A DNA stretch of 40,475 bases from a virus (Duplodnaviria > Heunggongvirae > Uroviricota > Caudoviricetes). Position 1 is the first letter of the stretch, and each line of letters starts with the position of its first letter. The stretch lies in IMG/VR virus record IMGVR_UViG_2660237933_000004; one strand, 5' to 3'. A model generated the notes under the pieces. It did not search any database, was not told the origin of the DNA, and worked only from the letters and a program-made list of their open reading frames with translations. Both the position numbers and the translations under genes were made by a program. Shown piece after piece: positions 4-40,475 of this stretch.

Positions 4-501
4 ATGATGCCATTTGCTCGTTATTTCTGCATTTTCATAAACGTTGGTTTGGGAGAAGGTGCTCCAACTATTGGCGTTCCGTTCTTCTGGCCCTCCGCGG
101 CAATGCCAAATACTGTAATCGACAGCTGGTCCGGTATGGTGTTTTTGAAGTTCAACGGGGCGAAATTTTCTGCCTCTGATTACCCTGTGCTGGCGAAAGT
201 GTTTCCTTCGCTGGTATTACCTGAAGCCCGCGGTGATTTCATTCGTATCTGGGATGACGGGCGAGGTGCAGATGGTGGTCGCGAATTATTAAGCTGGCAG
301 GAAGCTACAAACTTTTCTCAGTTTGCCGGGAATATAGGCGGAGGTGCGGGACACGCAATTAGCTTTCATGATGGCATCGCCGGAAATCAGCCAGGATTTT
401 CACGATTTAATTTCACCAGTAACTCTGTGGGTGATGGTGTGAATTTTGTTGCTGTCAGACCGCGAAATATTGCATTTAACTTTCTGGTGAGGGCTAAATA
501 A
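4..501 (+). CDS. Alternative tail-fibre C-terminal variable domain (Sv'-like), silent orientation; 5' part is the crossover site
   Basis: ORF running out of the left crossover site; encodes GLGEGA at the site exactly as the expressed fibre does at the right site; followed by its own tail-fibre assembly gene. Confidence 0.5.
   Translation: MMPFARYFCIFINVGLGEGAPTIGVPFFWPSAAMPNTVIDSWSGMVFLKFNGAKFSASDYPVLAKVFPSLVLPEARGDFIRIWDDGRGADGGRELLSWQEATNFSQFAGNIGGGAGHAISFHDGIAGNQPGFSRFNFTSNSVGDGVNFVAVRPRNIAFNFLVRAK
32..57. repeat. DNA-invertase crossover site, left (hix/gix-like)
   Basis: TTTTCATAAACGTTGGTTTGGGAGAA has the AAAC-nn-GGTTT core of Hin/Gin/Cin/Pin sites; an inverted copy lies at 1778-1803 (21 of 26 identical, distal 12 bp identical). 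Confidence 0.55.
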
Positions 502-1094
502 TGAAACCTGTTTTTGATGAAAATGGGCTGGCTACAGTGCCGGGCGATATGCGTTGTTTTTATTATGATGCTGAAACATCTGAGTATACGGGCTGGTCTG
601 ATGAATATATTAATACTGGCGTAAGTATGCCCGCCTGTTCAACTGGTATTGACCCGGGCGAAAACATTCTGGGAAGAGTGGCAGTATTTACAGGTAAGGG
701 ATGGAGCCATGAGGAAGACCATCGCAATGAGACTGTTTACTCAATCGAAAATGGTGCAGCTGTTACAGTGGATTATATCGGTGCCATCAAAGACGGTTAT
801 GTCACGCTTTCACCGTTAACGCCATACGATAAATGGGATGGTGAGAAATGGGTGACAGACACTGAGGCACAACACAGTGCCGCAGTAGACGCGGCAGAAG
901 CACAGCGCCAGTCACTGATTGATGCAGCAATGGCTTCCATTAGTCTGATTCAGCTGAAATTACAGGCCGGACGGAAACTGACTCAGGCAGAAACAACCCG
1001 ACTTAACGCCGTGCTGGATTACATTGACGCGGTGACGGCAACAGATACCAGCACCGCGCCGGATGTCATCTGGCCTGAACTGCCGGAGGCGTAG
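501..1094 (+). CDS. Tail fibre assembly protein (Tfa', alternative orientation)
   Basis: C-terminal motif DTSTAPDVIWPELPE typical of Tfa chaperones; convergent with the second tfa gene as in Mu G / P1 C segments. Confidence 0.7.
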   Translation: MKPVFDENGLATVPGDMRCFYYDAETSEYTGWSDEYINTGVSMPACSTGIDPGENILGRVAVFTGKGWSHEEDHRNETVYSIENGAAVTVDYIGAIKDGYVTLSPLTPYDKWDGEKWVTDTEAQHSAAVDAAEAQRQSLIDAAMASISLIQLKLQAGRKLTQAETTRLNAVLDYIDAVTATDTSTAPDVIWPELPEA

Positions 1095-1494
1095 GCCATT
1101 CAATATCGGGTGCTGTTGACGTATCAACACGCATCAGCAGCACACGGTATTTCTTCCATTGGGTGAGAGTTGTAGCTTCTTCATCAGTTGCGATATCAGC
1201 ATCAACAGCATCCTGACGCCAGGATATTTCACTGTCAGCTTTTTCCCGTAATTGGGATTTTTTAACTTCAGCAATAGCTATTAATTCCTTTTTGGTCGGC
1301 TGAGGAATATCTATCATTGCTGGTTTTCCATTCAGTGTTCCAATCTGTTTTCCTGGTGGAATATCCATAAATAACTTTTTATGTTCTTCCTCACTGACTA
1401 TTACACCATCATCAGGCCACAGACCTGATGCCTCAAATTTTTCTTTCTCCGATATGGGGAAAAAGCCATTTGCTTTAGCGCTCCATACGTACAT
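1066..1494 (-). CDS. Tail fibre assembly protein (Tfa)
   Basis: 142 aa; C-terminal KKYRVLLMRVDTSTAPDIEWPTPP motif; directly downstream of the tail fibre gene. Confidence 0.75.
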   Translation of the reverse strand: MYVWSAKANGFFPISEKEKFEASGLWPDDGVIVSEEEHKKLFMDIPPGKQIGTLNGKPAMIDIPQPTKKELIAIAEVKKSQLREKADSEISWRQDAVDADIATDEEATTLTQWKKYRVLLMRVDTSTAPDIEWPTPPAVQAR

Positions 1495-2668: not shown

Positions 2669-3717
2669 GAAATCGTCCCCAGTACCGCCAGTTCATTTTT
2701 TGCAATGGAGATATTGTCTGCCGGTGCAAGCAACTGATGGCTGTATTCCCCGTTCGCACCGGAAATCGCTTCACTGATACGCGACACCTTCAGTTCTCCC
2801 TGCGGATAACCATCACGCAGCAGGAACGAACGCAACTCGGCGGTGATGGCAGCCCGTATTTCTGGTGTATCCGGCGTCACACGGATATGAAAATCCACCG
2901 TATGCGCCACCGGCCTGAACACATACAAATCAGAGCCTGCCACCGGGGCCAGTGGCTCGATATGCAGCCTTGCCGCCGTTTCCGTTGATTCTTCCGGAAT
3001 GGGATTAATCAGGTCGCTGCTGGCAATCATCACACCGACAGTCCCCGTTCCCATCCAGTGTCGGTATGTCCATGCGCGGGTAATGCCGGGAACTTCTTTA
3101 GCCCAGACGACATAGTCCCCGTCAGCCCCGCCCTGAGGCGTCCAGTAATACCGCTCAATGACGCGGGCGCGCCACGTTTCCAGCTCTTCAGTATCAAATC
3201 CACCTGTCAGTGTATCTGCCACGCCGGAAGACGGCAGACCATTCACCGGCGTGACCAGGATTAATGACGTACCGTCGTCAGCGTTACCGACCGCGCCTGC
3301 ACTTGAGCAGGCGATCGGCACGCGCAGGACACCACCGGAGCTGGTTGCATCGGCAGTTGCCGTGTACTGCACCAGGTCATCGCGCTGAATAACACTCCCG
3401 GCGGTCACCTTCAGGCCATCGCTGACACCTTCCCAGCGCATATACCCGCTGGCAGCCGTGGCCCCCTTGCGCGGACATCGTTTCATCGCAGCATGTCGCG
3501 CCAGCCAGGACTCATCGCACAAGTCAGGCAGCATGTTCATTGCCAGATAATCGATGTACCCGTAAACCGTATGCAGCGCCGCCGCATACACCTTTGCCCG
3601 CACGTCTTCATCCATGCGCCGGAGCGTGTCGCTGACGTCCAGCCAGGCGAATAAATCGTTACGGAGCATACTGATATTTTCTGCCAGCGTCGGGCGCTGA
3701 AATTCACTGTCCGCCAT
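2659..3717 (-). CDS. Baseplate J-like protein (Mu gp47-like)
   Basis: 352 aa; position in contractile-tail baseplate cluster; size typical of the baseplate J family. Confidence 0.6.
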
Positions 3718-4132
3718 GCGTTATCGCACTCCACAGATCATCAAAAGAAATCATTACCGGTCCGTCACGACGCCAGAGAGTGATACTGTTACCCAGTTCA
3801 TTAATCCCGGTGCGGCGGATATCCAGATCAATACGGGACACCACGCCATCATCAATCATCCATTGCAGGCATTCGCGGATATACCCCCTTACCGTCTGCA
3901 CCAGCTGATTGGTCAGTTTGCTGCGCTGAAGCAGCCACAGTCGGGAGCCGTAACGGTCATTCTGTACCGCAGGCCAGGTATCCCCCCACCATCCCATCGG
4001 GACGCCGGCGTTGTCATCAGGCTCCGCCCGCCGCCAGGTAAACAGGGAAATCACCACGGCGCGGGTCAGCGGATCCAGCGGTGCGCTGGCGCAGGTGCGT
4101 TTACCGTTCACCGTCAGCCACAGTTCCATCAT
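3704..4132 (-). CDS. Baseplate protein (GpW/gp25/Mu gp46-like)
   Basis: 142 aa ORF in baseplate cluster, overlapping its neighbours. Confidence 0.5.
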   Translation of the reverse strand: MMELWLTVNGKRTCASAPLDPLTRAVVISLFTWRRAEPDDNAGVPMGWWGDTWPAVQNDRYGSRLWLLQRSKLTNQLVQTVRGYIRECLQWMIDDGVVSRIDLDIRRTGINELGNSITLWRRDGPVMISFDDLWSAITHGGQ

Positions 4133-4677
4133 GCCTCCATCGCTTTATCAGGTTTGTCGGTGTTACTGCCCTGACCGTTCTCTCTGTGACGATGCCCGTT
4201 ATAGGCAAGCCGCATCGCTGACATGGTGGTGCCGCTGGAGTCGCACAGGTCTTTCACCTGTCCTGTCACTTCCAGGTCCATTTCAAAACGTGCCTTAGGC
4301 GCATTGCGAAACGTGATCGTTTTACCTGCACCGTCCACCACGATCCCCTCCCGGGTCAGCGTCACGGACTGCCCCTGATCGTCATAGACAGCCACCTCCC
4401 CAGTCTGCAGCCCTTTCAGGCGGTAGCGACGGTCCGACACCGTAACAACCACCGCATGAGAACGGTCTCCATCCGGAAACAACACCACCGCTTCCGCACC
4501 GCTGTTTGCCCTTGCGGTAAAACCGTAGGGTTCAAGATGTTCAACCCCGGCTTTGGGTTCACCGGCAATCAGGGACACATCCACGGTCTGACATTTCGTG
4601 GCGGCACTGATGCTTTTCACCACGGCACGCCCAATCAGGCCGAGGAGTTGTCGCTGCATGGCTTCAATCGTCCTCAT
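4129..4677 (-). CDS. Baseplate assembly/spike protein (gpV/Mu gp45-like)
   Basis: 182 aa; position between gpP-like and gpW-like genes. Confidence 0.5.
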   Translation of the reverse strand: MRTIEAMQRQLLGLIGRAVVKSISAATKCQTVDVSLIAGEPKAGVEHLEPYGFTARANSGAEAVVLFPDGDRSHAVVVTVSDRRYRLKGLQTGEVAVYDDQGQSVTLTREGIVVDGAGKTITFRNAPKARFEMDLEVTGQVKDLCDSSGTTMSAMRLAYNGHRHRENGQGSNTDKPDKAMEA

Positions 4678-7142: not shown

Positions 7143-7673
7143 TTAGCGAGTCAGAAACAACGAATCTTTATACTTTTGCTGTTGTTCATTTAAATACTTA
7201 GCTGTTTCATCGCTGGCAAATGGAAATATTACCGTATTTTTAGGCATGGTAATTTCTTTTTTGTCCAGCGTCAGAGTAAACATAGGAACATACTGAGCAG
7301 AGTAACGCACCGCAGAAACGAGCTCTAGTTTAGACTCTTCAATAACACTTAAATTATCCAGGCTAACTTTCTCTTCATCTTTTTTCTTTGACGCATTTAA
7401 AGTTTTTATTACTTTATTTAATTTCTCCTGAAAATCCTCCTTAAAGTTTTCAGGATTGCCGTCGACAACAAGAATCTGTTCACCCTGATTATCTGGAAAA
7501 ATAATCTTTGCACTTATCAATTTATTTTCTTTATAAACATCACCAAGTTTTATGGCTCCTCCAGATAACTGAATAATATGTTCATCTTTAAAGGAGATGT
7601 TGCCAGAGATTATGAGAGATGAAAAAATAGCCGCTGCTCCAAGAATTACACTTGCTGTGATATAGCCTTTCAT
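7143..7673 (-). CDS. Hypothetical membrane-anchored moron protein
   Basis: 176 aa; N-terminal hydrophobic helix (VILGAAAIFSSLIIS) then Lys/Glu-rich soluble domain; markedly AT-rich versus flanking tail genes; own promoter-like sequence and terminator. Confidence 0.6.
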   Translation of the reverse strand: MKGYITASVILGAAAIFSSLIISGNISFKDEHIIQLSGGAIKLGDVYKENKLISAKIIFPDNQGEQILVVDGNPENFKEDFQEKLNKVIKTLNASKKKDEEKVSLDNLSVIEESKLELVSAVRYSAQYVPMFTLTLDKKEITMPKNTVIFPFASDETAKYLNEQQQKYKDSLFLTR

Positions 7674-7764: not shown

Positions 7765-9597
7765 CTACCAAAATCGGGTATAGCCAACATCGTGATTTAT
7801 ATCAATGCCACTGGAGCGTGTTTCCGTAACCCGCATACCTGGTGGCATATTTATAAATGATACCTTGATCTCACCATCAACTTTTGGCGCGGTAGCTTTA
7901 TTAATCATGAAGGGATTCGGGCCTGTGGCATCGGAGGCGTTGTTTGCCTGAGCCGGATCCACCGCCGGATAAGGAGTGTATCCCCGTGCCGGTATTCCCG
8001 TCCCATAAGCATCATAAGCACCCGCGCCCCACTGCGCAGAGTTAATGGCATCGACCGTGTCACCGGAACTGTCGGTAAACCACTCAATAATTGGCTTCAG
8101 CTTGTCCCACATATCCTGAAACCACTTAACAACCGGCCCCCAGTTATTGATCACCATCCCCAGCGGCGACCAGGCAAAAACTTTCTTAAGGAGTTCCCGG
8201 CCAGCCTCAAAATAAGGACCAATGGTTTCCCAGAGCTTCTTGAAATAAGGTCCGACAACATCCCAGTTAGTGATAATTAATCCCGCAGCCAGGGCTATCG
8301 CCGTCGCAATCATGCCAATCGGCGTCATCGACATGATCCTGCTGACAATGCTGATGGCACTGCCCACGCCCATCAATCCCAGTTTCAGAATCGCAAGACC
8401 GGCAGCAAGCCCGACGACGCCGCGAATAACCCGGGGATTTTCATCCGCAAACTTCGTGAATTTTTCCCCTAACTCCCCCAGCCATTGCGTGATATTTTTG
8501 GCGTCACCAGAAAATGCGCCGCCAATAGCCGCAAGGCCGTTAGTTGCGGTCCCCGTCATTGCCTCCCACAGGTTGGACAGCGTACCAAGCTGGGCCTGAA
8601 CACGTTTATTCAGGCTGGCCTGTTTATTCATCTTCTGCTGGATCTGATCGTAGCCATCCTTTCCTTTATCGATTAGTGCATTGACCACCTGAAGGGTTTC
8701 GGCATCATCACCAAATATTGCCTTAAGTACACCTGTTCGCTTAACGTCGGTCAGTTTTCGCAGCTTTGCCAGTTGCCTGAACATGTTATCAAGACCGCCA
8801 AAACTCCCTTTGCCGTCAGTAAAATCGAGCTTTACTCCGAGTTTCTGGCGGGCCATGATTTTATTGACGTCCCTGATTTTCTTAACGCTTAATCCGGACT
8901 GGATAACTTTTCGCAGGGCATTACCTGCCGACTCCCCGTTCATCCCCATCTGATCCATCATGACGCTGATGGGGGCAAGGCTCTGTGCAGCCTGAAGACC
9001 GTCCTTGTTCACCATCTTCAGAACAGAACTGGTTTTAGTGAAAAAGGACAACATGTTGGTATCGTCAACGCCCAGATAAAACGCCTTCTGGATAGTGTCG
9101 AACAGCCCCATCATGTCTTCTGACGCCGTTCCGGTAGCATCCTGCATCTTTGCGGCAAACTCGGCAGCCGCTTCCGGTGTTTTTTTCAGTTGTACCGCAA
9201 GATAAGCTGTCGCTTTACCCACACCGCCCAGAATGTTTTCTGCCGGGATCCCCTGACGCACCAGCATCTGCATCATGTTCTGGAAATCAGCCGTTGTACC
9301 GGGTAGCTGGTTACCCAGACCAATAGCCAGTTTATTGATGTCCTGAAAGCGCTTTCCGACCTCACCGTTCGCATCCATCATGGCAACTTTCAGCCCGGTG
9401 GCGGCATTTTCCTGATCGGCATAAGATTTCAGGGAAAGCGTCAGACCCGCAGCCAGTCCGCCACCAAGCGCCAGCCCACCCTGTGACGCTTCTTCAGCCT
9501 GGCGTTTAAATCCCCGGATTTTCTTTTGCATTTTCGACAGCGCGGGAGAAAGCCTGTCGACACCGGTGATCAACGCCTTAAGCTCAAATTCAGCCAT
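7765..9597 (-). CDS. Tail tape measure protein
   Basis: 610 aa with Gly/Ala-rich and hydrophobic segments; follows the frameshifted chaperone pair. Confidence 0.8.
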   Translation of the reverse strand: MAEFELKALITGVDRLSPALSKMQKKIRGFKRQAEEASQGGLALGGGLAAGLTLSLKSYADQENAATGLKVAMMDANGEVGKRFQDINKLAIGLGNQLPGTTADFQNMMQMLVRQGIPAENILGGVGKATAYLAVQLKKTPEAAAEFAAKMQDATGTASEDMMGLFDTIQKAFYLGVDDTNMLSFFTKTSSVLKMVNKDGLQAAQSLAPISVMMDQMGMNGESAGNALRKVIQSGLSVKKIRDVNKIMARQKLGVKLDFTDGKGSFGGLDNMFRQLAKLRKLTDVKRTGVLKAIFGDDAETLQVVNALIDKGKDGYDQIQQKMNKQASLNKRVQAQLGTLSNLWEAMTGTATNGLAAIGGAFSGDAKNITQWLGELGEKFTKFADENPRVIRGVVGLAAGLAILKLGLMGVGSAISIVSRIMSMTPIGMIATAIALAAGLIITNWDVVGPYFKKLWETIGPYFEAGRELLKKVFAWSPLGMVINNWGPVVKWFQDMWDKLKPIIEWFTDSSGDTVDAINSAQWGAGAYDAYGTGIPARGYTPYPAVDPAQANNASDATGPNPFMINKATAPKVDGEIKVSFINMPPGMRVTETRSSGIDINHDVGYTRFW

Positions 9598-9772
9598 GTG
9601 TGCGTTTCTCCTGCTCTATCCTGTTTGCCTGACTGACCAGCAAGGGAATTTCACTGATCGGCATATTCAGCAATTCGAAGGGATTAATGCGCCAGTAGCT
9701 GGCGCAGTCAAAGAAGCGATCAGTGAGGTATTCAGCCGTCAGGCCTGGAGGAAAAAACCAGCCACAAGCCAC
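9590..9772 (-). CDS. Tail assembly chaperone, -1 frameshift extension (GT-like)
   Basis: ORF in the -1 frame overlapping the 3' end of the chaperone ORF; continuation PPGLTAEYL follows the slippery site. Confidence 0.5.
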   Translation of the reverse strand: MACGWFFPPGLTAEYLTDRFFDCASYWRINPFELLNMPISEIPLLVSQANRIEQEKRTHG

Positions 9773-10008
9773 GCCGCTGCATTCAGGTCTGCCGGAGACA
9801 TCTGGTCGACAGAGCTTTGCGGCACTTTCGCCAGCCGCACAATGTATTTCGACACCACATGCGCCAGAAGTCTGACGGACTCATCCTGATTCATCTGGTA
9901 GGGATACCCCAGCTCGCGGACATCCTTCCCGGTGGGTTCATCAAACTCCAGTACGGAGAGTGTCTCACCATGAGCGATAATCGGTTTCTTTAACTCAAGC
10001 TCTTTCAT
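9739..10008 (-). CDS. Tail assembly chaperone (G-like)
   Basis: 89 aa ORF between tail tube and tape measure, overlapped by a -1 frame ORF. Confidence 0.6.
   Translation of the reverse strand: MKELELKKPIIAHGETLSVLEFDEPTGKDVRELGYPYQMNQDESVRLLAHVVSKYIVRLAKVPQSSVDQMSPADLNAAAWLVAGFFLQA
9752..9758 (-). promoter_or_regulatory. Programmed -1 ribosomal frameshift slippery heptamer (T TTT TTC)
   Basis: Minus-strand GGT TTT TTC in the zero frame of the chaperone, just before its stop; classic X_XXY_YYZ arrangement. Confidence 0.5.
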
Positions 10009-22657: not shown

Positions 22658-23461
22658 ATGACAGAAAAAGATAACATTGGTAAGTTAATTTGGCATATTG
22701 CTTGCGATGAATCTGGCATTGATGGACAACGTTTCTACGGCTTTGGCAGTCTGTGGATGAAGTACCAACGCCGTGGGGATTTCTGTCAACTAATCAGAGA
22801 ACTACGCGGAAAACATGGTTTTTTTGAAGAAATAAAATGGCAAAAAGCCCATTCAAAAAGATACTCTGAATTTTATCTTGAGCTGATCGACTTATTCTTT
22901 AGAGTTCCTTGGCTAGCTTTTCATTGTATCGTGGTTGAAAAATCAATAGTAAATAAGGCATTTCATAATGGAGATTATGACCTGGCAAGGAGAAAGCACT
23001 TCACAAATCTCATTACCACAAAAATTAGCTCTGTAATTTCTGCACACCCTGAAAGAGACAGTTACTTCAGGATTGAAGTTGATCCTATCGCATCTCGTTA
23101 TAAAAAGGCTGATGAAGAACTAAATGTTATTGCCAATAACATATTGAATAGAAAATTTGGTCGTAAAGGGATAATCAGCAGTGTAGTGACAAAAGACTCT
23201 AAAGCATCTGAAAACATTCAGCTAGCCGATTTTTTCTTAGGTGCGGTTATGTGCGCATATCAAGGAAAAGCTTCATCTGAAGCCAAAATAAGAGTATCAA
23301 ACTATGTTGCTTCATATTTAGGCTGGGATCACTTGCAATATGATACATGGCACACTGAGAGAAAATTTAATATCTGGTATTTTTATGATAAAACTCGAGG
23401 GCCACGAGATATAGAAACTCAAAATGTTAGCTTGAAGTATCCACTTCCCAAAAAGAAATAG
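22658..23461 (+). CDS. DUF3800-like protein (function unknown), opposite-strand moron between Q and holin
   Basis: 267 aa; N-terminal DESG and C-terminal QLAD motifs as I recall for DUF3800; AT-rich; AT-rich upstream region. Confidence 0.6.
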   Translation: MTEKDNIGKLIWHIACDESGIDGQRFYGFGSLWMKYQRRGDFCQLIRELRGKHGFFEEIKWQKAHSKRYSEFYLELIDLFFRVPWLAFHCIVVEKSIVNKAFHNGDYDLARRKHFTNLITTKISSVISAHPERDSYFRIEVDPIASRYKKADEELNVIANNILNRKFGRKGIISSVVTKDSKASENIQLADFFLGAVMCAYQGKASSEAKIRVSNYVASYLGWDHLQYDTWHTERKFNIWYFYDKTRGPRDIETQNVSLKYPLPKKK

Positions 23462-26274: not shown

Positions 26275-27801
26275 TCAAAAATAAACCTCACCATCAACCA
26301 TATATTTGAGAGTACTTATCGCCTGCTGGGCGGATATTGTTTTCATTAAAGGATAGTGTTTAAAAACAATGCCATTCATAAAATAGATATCACAGGTTTT
26401 ATTATCTGTATTGATTATGATTTTTTCGAATGTTTTATAGGCAAGTGTACGACATAGCTCTCGCCCATTTTTACTGGTTAAGTCAATAGCATGAAAATCA
26501 CCAAGTGAACTCACCGCTTTACTCTTCAAAGTTTTTAATGATACAGAAGCCCTTCGTAATTCCTTATCTAATACTCTGATTTTTTCTGCTATAGCGGTAA
26601 CTTCAGGCGCAACAGATAATGCAGCAATTAAATTATTAATTTTCATCTGGAGCTCAATAATTTTCAACTCTAAAGTTTCATTAGCATCTTTCTTGTTTTC
26701 AACTGGTTGGATTTTACTACAATTAAAAAGCAACTCATTAATGATATTATAATCAACCAAATCTCTCTTTATTGATGGCCTGTCACATCGATGCAGTCTT
26801 CTCATCGGACAAACATAATAGCCATGCAAACTTCCAGATACCGCATGAACAATCATGGTATTACCACAAGCCTCGCACTTCATAACTGTTCGAAGTAGAT
26901 TTATCAACATAGGATTTTTGCTACTATTGCTAATACCAAAAGGTGCCAACCGAATTTCCTGCACAGCGTAAAACAAATCATCTGATATGACTCTGGGATA
27001 ATAGCCAGCGATTTCACTTATTCCTTTACCTCTTGCACGATATGAAGGTACGCATATACCTATCAGAGCTTTATTCGCTAATAATTTTTCAATTACAGAA
27101 GGCCCCCATGCACTTTCTTTGCCTGAGAAATTTTTTACAGCATGATCATTTAAATACTTGGCTATTGCATTCAATGATCGCCTTTCCATCCTGAGTTTAA
27201 AAATTAGCTCAATCGTTTTCACCCTGTCGGGGTCTGGAATAAAAGCTGTTCTTTTGTCATCCAATGAGAGCCATCTCGGACAAGACGCCGTCATAATCGT
27301 GCCTGACTCCAGTGCATCCTGCCGTTTTTTCTTCCATGATAATTTAACCCGACTTGACTTTATCTCGCTTTCTTCATTTGCCCTTTGTGCTATAAGTATG
27401 GCTTTTATTAATGAATATGGATCATTCAAAGAGTCAATATTATAGACTGTATTATCGCAAAGAGTTATAACATCAATACCGTGATTCAAAATCAATTTCA
27501 GACGCTCAATCGCTTCACCGACTTTTTCTCTTGAAAGTCTGTCCAAACTTTCAACTAACAATGTAGTTCCTGGCAATATATAACCATGCTCTATAGCATC
27601 TAAAAATTCCGAAAAAGCTCCTGATTGTGCATGCTTTCCTTTGAATGCACTTAATCCTAAATCTTCATATGTTATGGTATCAAGATAATAATCACTATTT
27701 ACCTTTAACCATTCAGCAATAAGTCTTCTCTGTCGGTTTAATGAGTCGCCAGACATCTGACCTGGTGATGAAAATCGCATATATGCTATGGCTTTTTTCA
27801 T
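26275..27801 (-). CDS. ybcK: Large serine recombinase (YbcK-like)
   Basis: 508 aa; N-terminal resolvase motif YMRFSSPGQ...SLNRQ, Cys-rich zinc-ribbon region (CEACG...CPMRRLHRC); AT-rich. Confidence 0.8.
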   Translation of the reverse strand: MKKAIAYMRFSSPGQMSGDSLNRQRRLIAEWLKVNSDYYLDTITYEDLGLSAFKGKHAQSGAFSEFLDAIEHGYILPGTTLLVESLDRLSREKVGEAIERLKLILNHGIDVITLCDNTVYNIDSLNDPYSLIKAILIAQRANEESEIKSSRVKLSWKKKRQDALESGTIMTASCPRWLSLDDKRTAFIPDPDRVKTIELIFKLRMERRSLNAIAKYLNDHAVKNFSGKESAWGPSVIEKLLANKALIGICVPSYRARGKGISEIAGYYPRVISDDLFYAVQEIRLAPFGISNSSKNPMLINLLRTVMKCEACGNTMIVHAVSGSLHGYYVCPMRRLHRCDRPSIKRDLVDYNIINELLFNCSKIQPVENKKDANETLELKIIELQMKINNLIAALSVAPEVTAIAEKIRVLDKELRRASVSLKTLKSKAVSSLGDFHAIDLTSKNGRELCRTLAYKTFEKIIINTDNKTCDIYFMNGIVFKHYPLMKTISAQQAISTLKYMVDGEVYF

Positions 27802-31310: not shown

Positions 31311-31350
31311 AACAACCTCCGTGGTTAATTTGAATCAAGATTAAAACTGT

Positions 31351-31371
31351 GGTTGTTTTTAGTCAACAACC
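31351..31371. promoter_or_regulatory. Candidate OR operator palindrome
   Basis: GGTTGTT-TTTAGTC-AACAACC perfect 7-bp inverted repeat between cro and cI; the same GTTGTT/AACAAC hexamers recur at the pL region. Confidence 0.35.
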
Positions 31372-31414
31372 ATTTTCGTTTGATGGAATAAAACCTTGGT
31401 TGTACATTTGGACT

Positions 31415-32104
31415 ATGAAAACAACACTCTCAGAAAGACTTAAAGAAGCCAGATTAGCGCGAGGCCTTACACAAAAGGCGCTTGGGGATTTGGTCGGGGT
31501 TAGCCAAGCTGCTATTCAGAAAATCGAAACAGGGAAAGCTAACCAAACAACTAAAATCGTGGAGATCGCGAACGCTTTGGGTGTGCGCGCAGAATGGTTA
31601 TCTTCTGGCGTTGGAAATATGTCAGACAGTACAGTGCAACCAATACCATCAACTGTCAGCCATTCCAAATACTTTAAGATTGACGTTCTTGATATAGAAG
31701 TGAGTGCCGGGCCGGGAGTCATCAACCGTGAGTTTGTAGAAGTTCTACGCTCGGTTGAGTACTCGTTTGACGATGCTCGTCACATGTTCGATGGTAGGAA
31801 GGCAGAAAATATCCGCATCATTAACGTACGCGGTGACAGCATGTCAGGAACGATCGAACCAGGTGATCTGCTGTTCGTTGATATCACGGTTAAATCTTTC
31901 GACGGTGATGGTATCTATGCGTTTCTGTATGACGACACCGCCCATGTAAAGCGCCTGCAAATGATGAAGGATAAGCTACTGGTTATCTCTGATAACAAGA
32001 GCTACTCGCCGTGGGACCCAATTGAGAAAGACGAGATGAACCGGGTATTCATCTTCGGTAAGGTTATTGGGAGCATGCCGCAGACATACAGGAAGCATGG
32101 GTAA
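31415..32104 (+). CDS. cI: CI-type prophage repressor (HTH plus S24 LexA-like autopeptidase domain)
   Basis: 229 aa from MKTTLSERLKEARLARGLTQKALGD; C-terminal GDSMSGTIEPGDLLFVD Ser nucleophile motif and a downstream Lys. Confidence 0.85.
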   Translation: MKTTLSERLKEARLARGLTQKALGDLVGVSQAAIQKIETGKANQTTKIVEIANALGVRAEWLSSGVGNMSDSTVQPIPSTVSHSKYFKIDVLDIEVSAGPGVINREFVEVLRSVEYSFDDARHMFDGRKAENIRIINVRGDSMSGTIEPGDLLFVDITVKSFDGDGIYAFLYDDTAHVKRLQMMKDKLLVISDNKSYSPWDPIEKDEMNRVFIFGKVIGSMPQTYRKHG

Positions 32105-32183: not shown

Positions 32184-33029
32184 ATGAAGCTTAACTTTTA
32201 TGCCGTATACATTCAAAATACTAGCTCTCTGAAAAAACAACCTATAGATTTATTGTCATTTCTGACAGAGCAGGTAATAAACGCTAAGAATCATGCTCAG
32301 CAGATTGAAGACTACTATGTTTTTGCACATCATATAATTAATGATAGTTTTATCCTGACAAAAACATTTGATTCAGAACTAGTTAAAAAAATCAATAGAA
32401 AAACACTTTCGGTTGATGAAATAAGAAATGCGCTTAGTTCAGATGAGTCATTAGGATTCCCATCATTTTTATTAATAAGAAAAAATATTATCGGATATGC
32501 AAATACATTATTCGGCCCAAAAACTCGTGATCTTGCAGCTTACCTAAAAGGAAAGGGAGCAATACCTGATGGATACTCACTATTCATAGAACCTTTGATG
32601 AGAGATATAACAAAGGATGATGCTTTAAGCATGCAGTTTATAGGAAGAACAACGGTAAGGGTTGAAAATGGGTCAAAACTTCTCAGCCCCCTACTTAGAG
32701 TGCTTGGTGCACAAGCAGTTGACGAAGAGCTCTTAGAAGGACTGGAAATAACCGTGAAGCCTAAACGTTTACGAAATATAAAATCTGTTGCCAAAGGGAT
32801 TATTAGCAATGTGGATGAACAACATGAGAGCATTCACCTGAAGGGTAAAGAACAAGCTGCAGATATTCTTACAGAATATTATCTTTCTGACAAAGGCCAC
32901 ATTGGAGCAAATATCTATAAATCATCGAATGAAGACATAGCATCCGAAATGTCAACTTGCTATCTCAGGATGAAATTGATTATAATGGAAAGTTATAATA
33001 GAACATTTGGAGATGAGTTACCACTATAA
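32184..33029 (+). CDS. rexA: RexA-like abortive-infection protein
   Basis: 281 aa directly downstream of cI; conserved segments ESLGFPSF, IEPLMR..TKDD, FIGRTTVRVE, ILTEYYLSDKGH match lambda RexA from memory; AT-rich. Confidence 0.7.
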   Translation: MKLNFYAVYIQNTSSLKKQPIDLLSFLTEQVINAKNHAQQIEDYYVFAHHIINDSFILTKTFDSELVKKINRKTLSVDEIRNALSSDESLGFPSFLLIRKNIIGYANTLFGPKTRDLAAYLKGKGAIPDGYSLFIEPLMRDITKDDALSMQFIGRTTVRVENGSKLLSPLLRVLGAQAVDEELLEGLEITVKPKRLRNIKSVAKGIISNVDEQHESIHLKGKEQAADILTEYYLSDKGHIGANIYKSSNEDIASEMSTCYLRMKLIIMESYNRTFGDELPL

Positions 33030-33031
33030 TA

Positions 33032-33487
33032 TTGGGGGGCTATATGAAGTCACGGCACAGGATAGCGCCAGCAATAATACTTTTTCTTTTGCCATTCCCA
33101 ATTATTATAAGTGCGTATTATCTAATCCGCCACATGTTTCCGGGTATGGCTTTTAGCGAGCACAGAGATGCGCTGGGTGGCGCTATTGCCGCTTATTCTG
33201 GTACTACAATTGCGATACTTATAGCCGCTTTAACATTTCTGATGGGGCTGGGAGGCAGGAATATTCGCAAATTGAAAACATATGGCTATATGACATCAAT
33301 CATAATCATGTATGGATTAACTTTTTGCGAGCTAGGAGTACTTTTCTTTAATGGCTTGTTTTTACTTGCAACAAGTAAAAATCCTATACTAATGCTACCA
33401 TCAATCGCTATTGGTTTATCAGGTACGTCACTAATCCATATTGGCATGCTCCTGATGCAATTACTTAATCTGTCAAAACATAAGTAA
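33032..33487 (+). CDS. rexB: RexB-like membrane protein
   Basis: 151 aa, four hydrophobic helices; FSEHRDALG...TIAILIAALTFL...YGYMTS closely matches lambda RexB from memory. Confidence 0.7.
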   Translation: MGGYMKSRHRIAPAIILFLLPFPIIISAYYLIRHMFPGMAFSEHRDALGGAIAAYSGTTIAILIAALTFLMGLGGRNIRKLKTYGYMTSIIIMYGLTFCELGVLFFNGLFLLATSKNPILMLPSIAIGLSGTSLIHIGMLLMQLLNLSKHK

Positions 33488-37655: not shown

Positions 37656-37977
37656 GGCCTGTCAGTTTCTCAAGATATCCAGACCTACCGCTACCAACTG
37701 GATACGAACAGGCCGCCTACAGGCAACACGCAAAGACCCCACTAAACTAAAATCTCCTTACCTCACAACACGACAAGCCTGCATTGCGGCGCTTCAGTCT
37801 CCGCTGCATACTGTCCAGGTGAGCGCGGGTGATGGCATAACAGAGGAAAGAAAATGTCACTCTTCCGCAGAGGTGAAATATGGTACGCCAGTTTCACATT
37901 GCCGAACGGTAAAAGATTTAAACAGTCTCTTGGAACAAAGGACAAAAGGCAGGCGACAGAGCTCCATGACAAGCTAA
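37627..37977 (+). CDS. xis: Excisionase (P22-type)
   Basis: 116 aa from [31 protein letters not shown] (AlpA/Xis-type HTH); immediately upstream of and overlapping int. Confidence 0.7.
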
Positions 37978-39017
37978 AGGCTGAAGCATGGCGGGTCAGC
38001 AAACTTGGTGAAATACCTGATATGACGTTCGAGGAGGCGTGTATCAGGTGGCTCGAAGAGAAAGCACATAAAAAATCACTGGACGATGACAAAAGCCGGA
38101 TCGGATTCTGGCTTCAACATTTCGCAGGGATGCAACTAAGAGACATCACTGAATCAAAAATTTATTCAGCAATGCAGAAAATGACGAACCGGCGTCATGA
38201 GGAAAACTGGAAACTCAGGGCAGAAGCATGCAGAAAAAAAGGGAAACCTGTTCCAGAATACACGCCAAAACCAGCGTCCGTTGCAACGAAGGCTACGCAT
38301 CTTTCATTTATAAAGGCCCTGCTAAGAGCCGCAGAGCGTGAATGGAAAATGCTGGATAAGGCACCAATTATTAAAGTGCCTCAACCAAAGAATAAACGGA
38401 TCCGCTGGCTGGAGCCCCATGAAGCACAAAGGCTGATTGATGAATGTCCGGAGCCATTAAAGTCTGTTGTTGAATTTGCACTGGCAACAGGCTTAAGACG
38501 CTCGAACATCATCAACCTTGAATGGCAACAAATAGATATGCAGCGCCGGGTGGCATGGATAAACCCGGAAGAGAGTAAATCAAACCGCGCAATTGGCGTT
38601 GCGCTGAATGATACTGCATGTCGCGTATTGAAAAAACAAATCGGGAATCATCACCGTTGGGTATTTGTGTACAAGGAAAGCTGTACCAAACCAGACGGAA
38701 CGAAAGCGCCAACAGTAAGGAAGATGCGGTATGACGCAAACACAGCCTGGAAAGCGGCGCTGAGACGGGCTGGTATTGATGATTTCAGATTTCACGACTT
38801 GAGACACACCTGGGCAAGTTGGCTGGTTCAAGCCGGAGTCCCGTTGTCAGTGTTACAGGAAATGGGAGGCTGGGAGTCTATCGAAATGGTTCGTCGATAT
38901 GCTCACCTTGCACCTAATCACCTTACCGAACACGCACGGCAAATAGACTCGATCCTGAACCCATCGGTCCCAAATTTGTCCCAGTCAAAAAATAAGGAAG
39001 GTACTAATGATGTGTAA
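37854..39017 (+). CDS. int: Tyrosine integrase (P22/SfV-type, thrW-specific)
   Basis: 387 aa; N-terminus [31 protein letters not shown] and catalytic region [10 protein letters not shown]...VRRYAHL; ends 14 bp from the tRNA-Thr 3' end. Confidence 0.9.
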
Positions 39018-39031
39018 CTTATTGATTTAAA

Positions 39032-39107
39032 TGGTGCCGATAATAGGAGTCGAACCTACGACCTTCGCATTACGAATGCGCTGCTCTACCAACTGAGCTA
39101 TATCGGC
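39032..39107 (-). tRNA. thrW: tRNA-Thr (anticodon CGU), thrW-type
   Basis: Minus-strand 76 nt GCCGATATAGCTCAGTTGGTAGAGCAGCGCATTCGTAATGCGAAGGTCGTAGGTTCGACTCCTATTATCGGCACCA; cloverleaf with CGT anticodon; 3' CCA. Confidence 0.9.
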
Positions 39108-39221: not shown

Positions 39222-40475
39222 TTACGCACGAATGGTGTAATCACCAATGCCGATCCACTTGTAAGTGGTCAGTGCTTCCAGCCCCATTGGGCCACGCGCG
39301 TGGAGTTTTTGTGTGCTTACCGCCACTTCCGCACCCAGTCCAAACTGGCCGCCGTCGGTAAAACGCGTAGAGGCGTTAACGTAAACAGCGGACGAATCCA
39401 CTTCGTTAACAAAACGCTGGGCGTTGCGCATATCGCGGGTCAGGATCGCATCGGAGTGTTGTGTGCCGTGTTCACGAATATGGGCGATGGCATCGTCAAG
39501 ATCGCTGACGATTTTGACGTTCAAATCTAATGACAGAAACTCATCGTCATACTCTTCGGCTTTAACCGCCACCACCTTCGCGGGGCCTGCCTGCAACTGT
39601 GTCAGCGCAGCTGCATCTGCGTGTAATGTCACGCCGCTTTCCGCCATTTGTTTGCTTAATACGGGCAGGAAGCTATCGGCGATGTTTTTATTCACCAGCA
39701 ACGTTTCTACCGTATTACATGTGCTCGGACGCTGGGTTTTCGCGTTGACGATCACTTTTAATGCTTCAGCAATCTCTGCACTTTCATCAACGTAAATATG
39801 GCATACGCCTATACCACCAGTGATCACCGGGATCGTCGACTGTTCGCGGCACAGTTTATGCAAACCAGCCCCACCGCGCGGGATCAGCATGTCGATGTAT
39901 TTATCCATACGCAGCATTTCACTGACCAGCGCACGGTCAGGATTATCAATCGCCTGCACGGCACCCGCCGGTAAGCCACAGGATTTCAGGGCGTCCTGAA
40001 TCACCGCCACCGTTGCAGCGTTAGTGCGACAGGTTTCTTTGCCACCACGCAGGATCACCGCATTACCGGTTTTCAGGCACAGCGAAGCGACATCAACCGT
40101 CACGTTCGGGCGCGCTTCATAAATCACGCCAATCACCCCCAGCGGCACGCGACGACGCTCAAGACGCAGGCCGCTGTCCAGCACGCCGCCATCAATCACC
40201 TGCCCCACCGGATCGGCGAGGTTACACACCTGGCGCACATCATCGGCAATGCCTTTCAACCGTGCGGGCGTCAGTGCCAGACGGTCAAGCATCGCTTCGC
40301 TAAGGCCATTGGCACGCGCGTCAGCAACATCCTGGGCGTTAGCGTTGAGGATGATTTCGCTTTGTGCTTCCAGTTCATCGGCGATTTTTTCCAGCACGCG
40401 ATTTTTTTCGCGGCTGGAGAGTTGCGCTAATTTATACGAGGCTTGCTTCGCGGCAATGCCCATTTGTTCCAGCAT
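39222..40475 (-). CDS. proA: Gamma-glutamyl phosphate reductase ProA
   Basis: 417 aa, full-length match to E. coli ProA; start codon at the last base of the window. Confidence 0.95.

Follow-up and report, generated by a model that had tools for sequence, protein, structure and literature searches.

A conserved T_TTT_TTC slip site and a probable −1 frameshift in the gene for the tail assembly chaperone of SfV-type prophages

A G/GT pair of tail assembly chaperones is made by nearly all long-tailed phages and is to be expected in an SfV-type prophage as well. The locus described here lies in a 40,475-nucleotide (nt) stretch of tailed-phage DNA (IMG/VR record IMGVR_UViG_2660237933_000004; hereafter the window, meaning the whole stretch that was analysed), where a chaperone open reading frame (ORF), here called ORF1, is overlapped and extended by a second ORF in the −1 frame just 5′ of the tape-measure gene. 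A preliminary description made from the DNA letters had read this arrangement as a programmed −1 frameshift of the G/GT type. Our analysis leads us to conclude that a −1 ribosomal frameshift on the heptamer T_TTT_TTC very probably yields both an 89-amino-acid (aa) chaperone and a 139-aa fusion protein. The mechanism is a textbook one, and the locus is a real, strongly supported and new, or at least unannotated, example of it in SfV-type phages.

The anatomy of the locus can be read directly from the DNA (Table 1). The feature lies on the minus strand, which the preliminary description had left unstated, although its sequence details were correct and its coordinates (9590-10008) match the span from the ORF1 start to the fusion stop exactly. 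The chaperone ORF was said to end with GGT TTT TTC near its stop, and its final codons are indeed GCT GGT TTT TTC CTC CAG GCC TGA, giving a zero-frame C-terminus of ...LVAGFFLQA. The three codons GGT TTT TTC, GGTTTTTTC at 9759..9751, hold a heptamer of the X_XXY_YYZ type that lies three codons 5′ of the ORF1 stop. The codons of the second ORF begin one base 5′ of those of ORF1, placing it in the −1 frame as described, and this frame is free of stops from 9880 to the TGA at 9592..9590. A slip on T_TTT_TTC would thus produce a 139-aa protein, ...AAWLVAGFF followed by the 53-codon extension PPGLTAEYLTDRFFDCASYWRINPFELLNMPISEIPLLVSQANRIEQEKRTHG, whose first 86 residues are those of the 89-aa product. 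The junction peptide of the predicted fusion is ...AGFFPPGLTAEYLTDR, or, in the form suited to mass spectrometry, VPQSSVDQMSPADLNAAAWLVAGFFPPGLTAEYLTDR. The surrounding genes, in the order sheath, tube, chaperone and tape measure on the minus strand, are tightly packed: the tail tube stop overlaps the chaperone start (TAATG), the fusion TGA overlaps the tape-measure ATG (9597..9595) by 8 nt (ATGGCTGA), and the tape-measure Shine-Dalgarno (SD) sequence AGGAG (9612..9608) lies within the −1 extension. The presence of a sheath gene marks the tail as contractile.

The N-terminal part belongs to a known chaperone family. ORF1 matched Pfam PF10109 (Phage_TAC_7, "E, or 41 or 14") with 56.7 bits against a cutoff of 25, residues 4-86 being aligned to profile positions 2-78 of 79, and P2 gpE matched the same profile positions with 47.8 bits; in both proteins, then, the domain ends exactly where the slip site lies. 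No Pfam family other than PF10109 was found for ORF1. Together with the location of the gene between tube and tape measure, this match supports the chaperone identity proposed from the letters. Among predicted viral structures, the AlphaFold model of the 89-aa protein alone (predicted local distance difference test score, 78.7; predicted template modelling (TM) score, 0.70) was most similar to proteins bearing the names tape measure chaperone or tail assembly chaperone (TM score 0.5-0.7). Foldseek comparison of the model with the PDB found no solved structural relative (E>2), and a hidden Markov model search of the PDB returned one chance match (E=0.028). The −1 extension matched phrog_32181 of PHROGs ("unknown function", E=4e-40) and no Pfam or NCBIfam model; NCBIfam likewise holds no model for the chaperone. 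Two further assignments were considered and rejected. PF06528 (Phage_P2_GpE, the family of P2 E′) did not match the extension of the window at E<=10, nor any of 14 diverse extensions at E<=1, and the Mu gp41 family PF23746 with its −2 shift does not fit a locus in which ORF1 matches PF10109 only and the extension is in the −1 frame.

The arrangement recurs throughout the relatives of this locus. A search of a species-dereplicated genome collection gave 20 loci, of which 19 were analysed, with chaperones 38-100% identical to that of the window and sources ranging from Shigella, Edwardsiella, Citrobacter, Erwinia, Pantoea and Kosakonia to the betaproteobacterium Derxia gummosa. All 19 carry an in-frame TTTTTTC (TTTTTTT in two) at the aligned ...GFF position, keep the −1 frame open for 41-49 codons past the zero-frame stop, and end it within −13 to +2 nt of the tape-measure start. 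The same arrangement was found in SfIV, ST64B, phiP27, F1055, AH07 and Burkholderia phage BgVeeders33, which bring the set to 25 loci; across this set T_TTT_TTY is in frame at the homologous position without exception, the −1 frame runs for 41-57 codons, up to the tape-measure start, and the 8-nt overlap of fusion stop and tape-measure start (ATGnnTGA) is present in 18. The heptamer keeps its position, and the zero-frame stop follows it at a variable distance (3, 8, 9, 10, 14 or 21 codons). Within the window, in-frame X_XXY_YYZ heptamers number 43 in about 11,780 codons (roughly one per 274 codons), and in no other case is the heptamer close to a stop and the −1 frame open as far as the start of the next gene. 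Judged from these comparisons, the arrangement is conserved in relatives far beyond chance, and the G/GT reading of the preliminary description holds at this level in family, position, heptamer and conservation in 25 loci. The sole other heptamer whose −1 frame passes its own stop is GGGAAAT at 4045, in a plus-strand ORF (3716..4174) that is antisense to minus-strand tail genes (3704..4132 and 4129..4677) and is probably spurious rather than a gene.

Conservation of the slip site extends to its nucleotides. Synonymous sites among the genome loci are largely saturated, with a proportion of synonymous differences (pS) of 0.49-0.89, and the Ala codon 5′ of the slip site appears as GCC, GCG, GCA or GCT. 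GGT TTT TTY, by comparison, occupies the slip site in all 18 distinct genome sequences, and NNT TTT TTY does so in each of the 24 distinct related sequences; members of the SfIV/ST64B/phiP27 group have Arg (CGT) or Asn (AAT) ahead of the two Phe, with the third base T retained. Elsewhere in the related genes, GGT accounts for 24% of Gly codons and TTT for 48% of Phe codons, and the chance of NNT TTT is about 0.115 per independent lineage and less than 1e-7 over eight independent lineages. The IMG/VR relatives, whose chaperone protein is identical throughout, are uninformative on divergence but informative on heptamer invariance, and the heptamer is unaltered in 80 of 80 such loci (25 haplotypes). 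Five of these 80 near-identical contigs have the fusion-stop TGA changed to GGA at its first base (9592); the overlapping tape-measure codon is altered only synonymously (GCT to GCG), and the fusion would gain two codons, up to the next TGA.

A run of T residues might also act on RNA polymerase. Were the polymerase to add an extra U on the T6 run, the resulting U7 messages (GGU UUU UUU CCU...) would give the same 139-aa protein by normal translation, and since the product is identical, conservation cannot tell the two mechanisms apart. In each of the 25 loci, the conserved site is a homopolymeric run of T (T6 or T7), and UUUUUUU is under-represented in Escherichia coli genes in all frames, possibly as a result of transcriptional slippage (PMC4066793). 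However, the run is only six residues long in most loci. Efficient slippage by bacterial RNA polymerase reportedly requires A/T runs of about nine or more, a figure credited to Baranov et al. 2005. The run also stands invariably in the X_XXY_YYZ register relative to the zero frame, a property relevant to a ribosome and not to a polymerase, and the homologous P2 site TTTTTTG has been handled as ribosomal frameshifting (PMC5009743, PMC3091744). We therefore consider transcriptional slippage unlikely and favor a −1 shift on the ribosome.

The extension behaves as protein-coding sequence in the −1 frame. The fused products of the 19 loci can be aligned end to end, and in the non-overlapping part of the extension the ratio of nonsynonymous to synonymous substitution rates (dN/dS) was 0.04-0.47, calculated pairwise against the Shigella sequence where dS could be estimated, many pairs being saturated. 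The proportion of nonsynonymous differences in the extension was 0.035-0.49, against a pS of 0.49-0.89, and its dN/dS is similar to that of the chaperone body, indicating that the extension is under purifying selection. A motif, (F/Y)(D/N)xAx(Y/F)W(R/K)xxP...A.RI, is common to the 14 diverse extensions, with A17, W20, P24, A42, R44 and I45 invariant. When the fusion was used as a tblastn query, each of the 23 phage records with at least 80% coverage returned it in two pieces lying in different frames. Natural hard-wired fusions were also considered: six database proteins cross the ORF1 stop and three span the entire fusion, but in these the frame changes away from the slip site, and we reject them as artefacts of error-prone or low-coverage contigs (e.g., 2.4x).

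The −1 ORF could instead be a gene of its own, its 60 residues (9772..9590) translated from a GTG as a free small protein, and it has been treated as such both in one GenBank record, as a separate "hypothetical protein", and in PHROGs, which keeps it as the stand-alone family phrog_32181. An independent start with a ribosome-binding site, which the preliminary description had named as grounds for refuting a frameshift, was looked for and not found. The best anti-SD pairing 5′ of GTG 9772 is −2.8 kcal/mol, compared to −8.6, −7.9 and −7.4 for the tube, chaperone and tape-measure genes, respectively, and the internal starts in the −1 frame reach −1.5 kcal/mol or weaker. Moreover, 11 of the 19 relatives have no ATG, GTG or TTG in the −1 frame between the upstream stop and the heptamer. 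Separate genes would also leave the fixation of the heptamer at the nucleotide level unexplained, and we regard this explanation as very improbable. Less credible still, and in our estimate effectively refuted by the sequence comparisons, is the view that the overlap has no function and stems from an accidental open frame, from a frameshift mutation in a prophage undergoing decay or from an error in sequencing. The window does contain many in-frame slippery heptamers, and some database proteins do span both parts as a single ORF, but the latter are the artefacts described above. The identical arrangement occurs in the viable isolated phages SfV, SfII, SfI, SfIV, ST64B and phiP27, in some 1,100 genomes of E. 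coli and in relatives with as little as 38% identity, and the purifying selection seen in the extension also speaks against this view.

Under the proposed −1 ribosomal frameshift, the majority of ribosomes would read through ...GGU UUU UUC CUC CAG GCC UGA and release the 89-aa chaperone. A minority, with two tRNA-Phe in the P and A sites on U_UUU_UUC, would slip back by one base, and both tRNAs would re-pair on UUU UUU in the −1 frame. These ribosomes would then read CCU CCA GGC... for 53 further codons to the UGA that overlaps the tape-measure start, giving a 139-aa protein in which the 86 common N-terminal residues are joined to a different C-terminal module. Such a slip, unaided by a stimulator, would probably occur with an efficiency of a few per cent. 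If the two products act like lambda gpG/gpGT and P2 gpE/gpE+E′, the shared part would bind the tape measure protein, and the extension would bring in tail tube protein for polymerisation of the tube around the tape measure; the ratio of the two chaperones would be set by the fixed frequency of slipping, and neither would be present in the virion.

Several points weigh against this proposal, the first being the RNA. The preliminary description had suggested a downstream stimulatory structure, but neither individual folds nor RNAalifold gave a conserved form. The first 50 nt downstream of the heptamer were folded in 12 relatives; in the SfV type they reach −6.5 kcal/mol (z=+0.71), no better than shuffled sequences, and RNAalifold on 18 sequences gave −4.45 kcal/mol with six pairs and no meaningful covariation. 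Without a conserved stimulator, the efficiency of the shift may be low. In addition, the 139-aa fusion is a product predicted from the DNA; the extension lacks a PF06528 match, and its profile similarity to P2 E′ alone is weak (hhalign, E=0.013, probability 3%); the homopolymeric T run could in principle also support transcriptional slippage to the same protein; and none of the related public records inspected contains a joined coding sequence (CDS). The lack of a stimulator is nevertheless compatible with function, because U_UU.U_UU.C and U_UU.U_UU.U produce more than 0.1% shifting in E. coli without stimulators (PMC4066793). Motifs of the form H_HH.U_UU.Y are among the most efficient in E. 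coli (PMC4066793), and the P2 TTTTTTG site has no hairpin (PMC3091744).

Other RNA structures were seen in individual lineages or farther from the site. The 108 nt from the heptamer on (9650..9757, minus strand) fold with z=−4.25 into helices that start at least 24 nt past the heptamer, 9726..9717 pairing with 9660..9651 and 9706..9699 with 9695..9688 (GCGCCAG/CUGGCGC). A relative with 93% identity does not preserve the long-range stem, and the inner hairpin falls on the conserved codons for CASYWR. Only the two most divergent relatives form strong hairpins that begin 1-2 nt past the heptamer, namely a metagenome-assembled genome of an uncultured proteobacterium (−21 kcal/mol, z=−2.8; L098:2750-2799, with L099 identical) and Derxia gummosa (−22 kcal/mol, z=−2.3; L103:2750-2799), in which they may serve as lineage-specific stimulators. 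Inspection of the alignment by eye for an upstream SD-like stimulator revealed GGAGG or GGGAG in two divergent loci only and none in the SfV type. A stimulated signal of the dnaX, IS911 or IS3 type, with a hairpin or pseudoknot 5-9 nt downstream or an SD-like element, was likewise rejected, on folds that cover structures other than pseudoknots.

To place the locus among known systems, it can be compared with P2, lambda and Mu. The RefSeq record of P2 annotates the 91-aa E, a joined CDS for E+E′ and the position of the slip, and the −1 frameshift that gives gpE and gpE+E′ in the FETUD operon is attributed to Christie et al. 2002 in a passage of PMC3091744. Like the locus described here, P2 has a contractile tail, a chaperone gene between tube and tape measure, and a PF10109 N-terminal part with the slip at the end of the domain. 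The P2 site, GTC GGT TTT TTG (...VGFL), shares the core GGT TTT TTN at the aligned ...V(A/V)GF(F/L) position; the products are of comparable size (91 and 142 aa in P2, 89 and 139 aa here), the fusion stop overlaps the next gene (T in P2) by the same 8 nt, and neither site has a downstream hairpin (for P2, according to PMC3091744). The two differ in the last base of the heptamer (G in P2, C or T here and in relatives), in the zero-frame tail after the site (6 codons in P2, 3 here) and in the tail genes around the locus, which are Mu-like here; the extension, besides escaping PF06528, gave an insignificant pairwise BLAST value (E=0.65). When the fused alignment was compared with P2 E+E′ by hhalign, the match (E=8.4e-5, probability 60%) spanned 118 columns over both parts, with VAGF and VVGF in register. 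Remote homology of the extension to P2 E′ is thus possible.

Lambda resembles the present case in having two chaperones with a common start and N-terminus, produced by −1 slipping at a low level close to the end of a gene that lies just 5′ of the tape measure, with no need for a stimulatory structure and with the slip frequency setting the ratio. The work on lambda gpG and gpGT is reportedly that of Levin et al. 1993 and Xu et al. 2004, 2013 and 2014. Lambda differs in its non-contractile tail and in its heptamer, G_GGA_AAG, decoded by tRNA-Gly and tRNA-Lys; no similarity to lambda gpG was seen in the searches run, which included no direct comparison. The lambda G:GT ratio is about 30:1; the tape measure is bound by the G part and the tail tube subunit by the T part, and virions contain neither protein; the G/GT arrangement is conserved in long-tailed phages, and the P2 shift is 2-3-fold more efficient (PMC5009743). 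These functions of the two parts are carried over to the SfV type by analogy only.

Mu, in turn, provides the likeness of the neighboring genes, which here correspond to sheath L, tube M, tape measure gp42 and DNA circulation gp43. Mu gp41 weakly touches PF10109 (24.7 bits), and the Mu extension shows weak profile similarity to the extension here (E=3.7e-4, probability 36%) over the motif P-E-x-L..P(I/L)S...Q(A/Q)A. However, gp41 (Mup41) is a 144-aa member of PF23746, its extension is in the +1/−2 frame, and no T_TTT_TTY heptamer exists at the Mu site; a −2 shift was proposed for Mu by Xu et al., as mentioned in a passage of PMC2628397. In the Mu sequence (L107, 3950-4115), the extension comprises 55 open codons in the +1/−2 frame, terminates 16 nt short of the gp42 start and contains P-E-W-x-L-S-L-P-L-S...QQAK, which resembles the extension here. 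It appears that related tail modules arrive at a similar extension by way of different shifts. A bolder proposal, which we hold to be doubtful, is that one ancient and uncurated C-terminal module is common to SfV-type, P2 and Mu tails, with access to it through separate recoding events (a −1 shift on T_TTT_TTY for the SfV type and for P2, a −2 shift for Mu) and with stimulators gained and lost in individual lineages, such as the hairpins of Derxia and the uncultured proteobacterium; the ATGnnTGA overlap could then couple some tape-measure initiation to the rare frameshifted ribosomes and help set the GT:tape-measure stoichiometry.

Table 1. Features of the chaperone locus and the adjacent tail genes, in window coordinates
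Feature	Coordinates	Strand	Evidence or remark
Tail assembly chaperone ORF (ORF1; G / P2 gpE equivalent)	9739..10008	−	PF10109 Phage_TAC_7; PHROGs phrog_166, tail protein; SD −7.9 kcal/mol
Slippery heptamer T_TTT_TTC	9751..9757	−	Codons GGT TTT TTC; conserved in relatives
−1 frame extension (T / P2 E′ equivalent), 53 codons + TGA	9590..9751	−	dN/dS; shared motif; phrog_32181
Predicted fusion CDS, join(10008..9751, 9751..9590), 139-aa GT-like product	9590..10008	−	End-to-end alignment of fused products
GTG listed mechanically as start of the −1 ORF; not credible for initiation	9770..9772	−	No SD
Tape measure protein gene, 610 aa	7765..9597	−	PF10145, 4.8e-27; SD −7.4 kcal/mol
Tail tube protein gene, 118 aa	10008..10364	−	PF10618, 2.4e-33
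Tail sheath protein gene, 498 aa	10364..11860	−	PF04984, PF17482, PF17481

The element that carries the locus is widespread. The window region is 98.6-99.5% identical to the Shigella and E. coli phages SfV, SfI, SfII and vB_EcoM-689R6, by which measure the window is an SfV/SfII/SfI-type prophage, and similar DNA was found in 1,099 of 5,426 complete E. coli genomes. The prophage ends at thrW, where a tRNA-Thr(CGT) gene (39032..39107, minus strand) lies next to a tyrosine integrase gene (37854..39017, plus strand) and an aldehyde-dehydrogenase-family (proA-like) host gene (39222..40475, minus strand). A second recombinase, a large serine recombinase of 508 aa (26275..27801, minus strand), is encoded in an early-gene region of 35% GC.

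Within the tail operon, between the tape measure and the DNA-circulation genes, lies a 176-aa ORF (7143..7673, minus strand) with a hydrophobic N-terminus and a weak SD, in a 39% GC stretch with flanks of about 55% GC. It matched phrog_5485 (function unknown) and no Pfam or PADLOC model, and looks like an inserted moron. A 25-nt inverted repeat (39-63 and 1772-1796, 96% complementary, with a AAACCAAGGTTT core) encloses two opposed tail-fibre-assembly genes (PF02413; ORFs 501..1094, plus strand, and 1066..1494, minus strand). This repeat-bounded segment is similar to the invertible host-range segments known from Mu (G), P1 (C) and e14 (P); within the window, no gene for a small invertase was seen. 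Candidate defence genes are present as well. Directly 3′ of a CI-like S24 repressor, in a 36% GC stretch (ORFs 31349..32104, 32184..33029 and 33032..33487, all on the plus strand), is a RexA homologue (PF15969, 3.8e-59; PADLOC RexA, 3.5e-115); the 151-aa ORF that follows it may be RexB, and the two would form a lambda-like abortive-infection module. A low-GC DUF3800 protein (22658..23461, plus strand) matched the PADLOC candidate defence family PDC-M04A (1.4e-34).

The related public records inspected do not reflect the arrangement. The extension region is left as a gap in SfV, SfIV, ST64B, phiP27, AH07, F1055 and an E. coli record annotated by the Prokaryotic Genome Annotation Pipeline (PGAP), it is a separate hypothetical protein in vB_EcoM-689R6, and in BgVeeders33 the chaperone itself is labelled "hypothetical protein". 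Full-text literature searches found no explicit description of a frameshift in SfV-type phages, although SfV may already be included in Xu et al. 2004, Christie et al. 2002 or Allison et al. 2002. The practical value of the finding lies in annotation: the 139-aa product is absent from SfV, SfI, SfII, SfIV, ST64B, phiP27 and the inspected PGAP-annotated E. coli prophage, where about 140 nt are currently uncalled or given to a separate "hypothetical protein", and recognition of the join would provide a function for phrog_32181. The locus also represents a clean natural case of stimulator-free slippage on U_UUU_UUC that can be measured. The site also matters for the engineering of these serotype-converting phages or of related tailocins, since tail assembly would be expected to fail if GGT TTT TTC were recoded synonymously.

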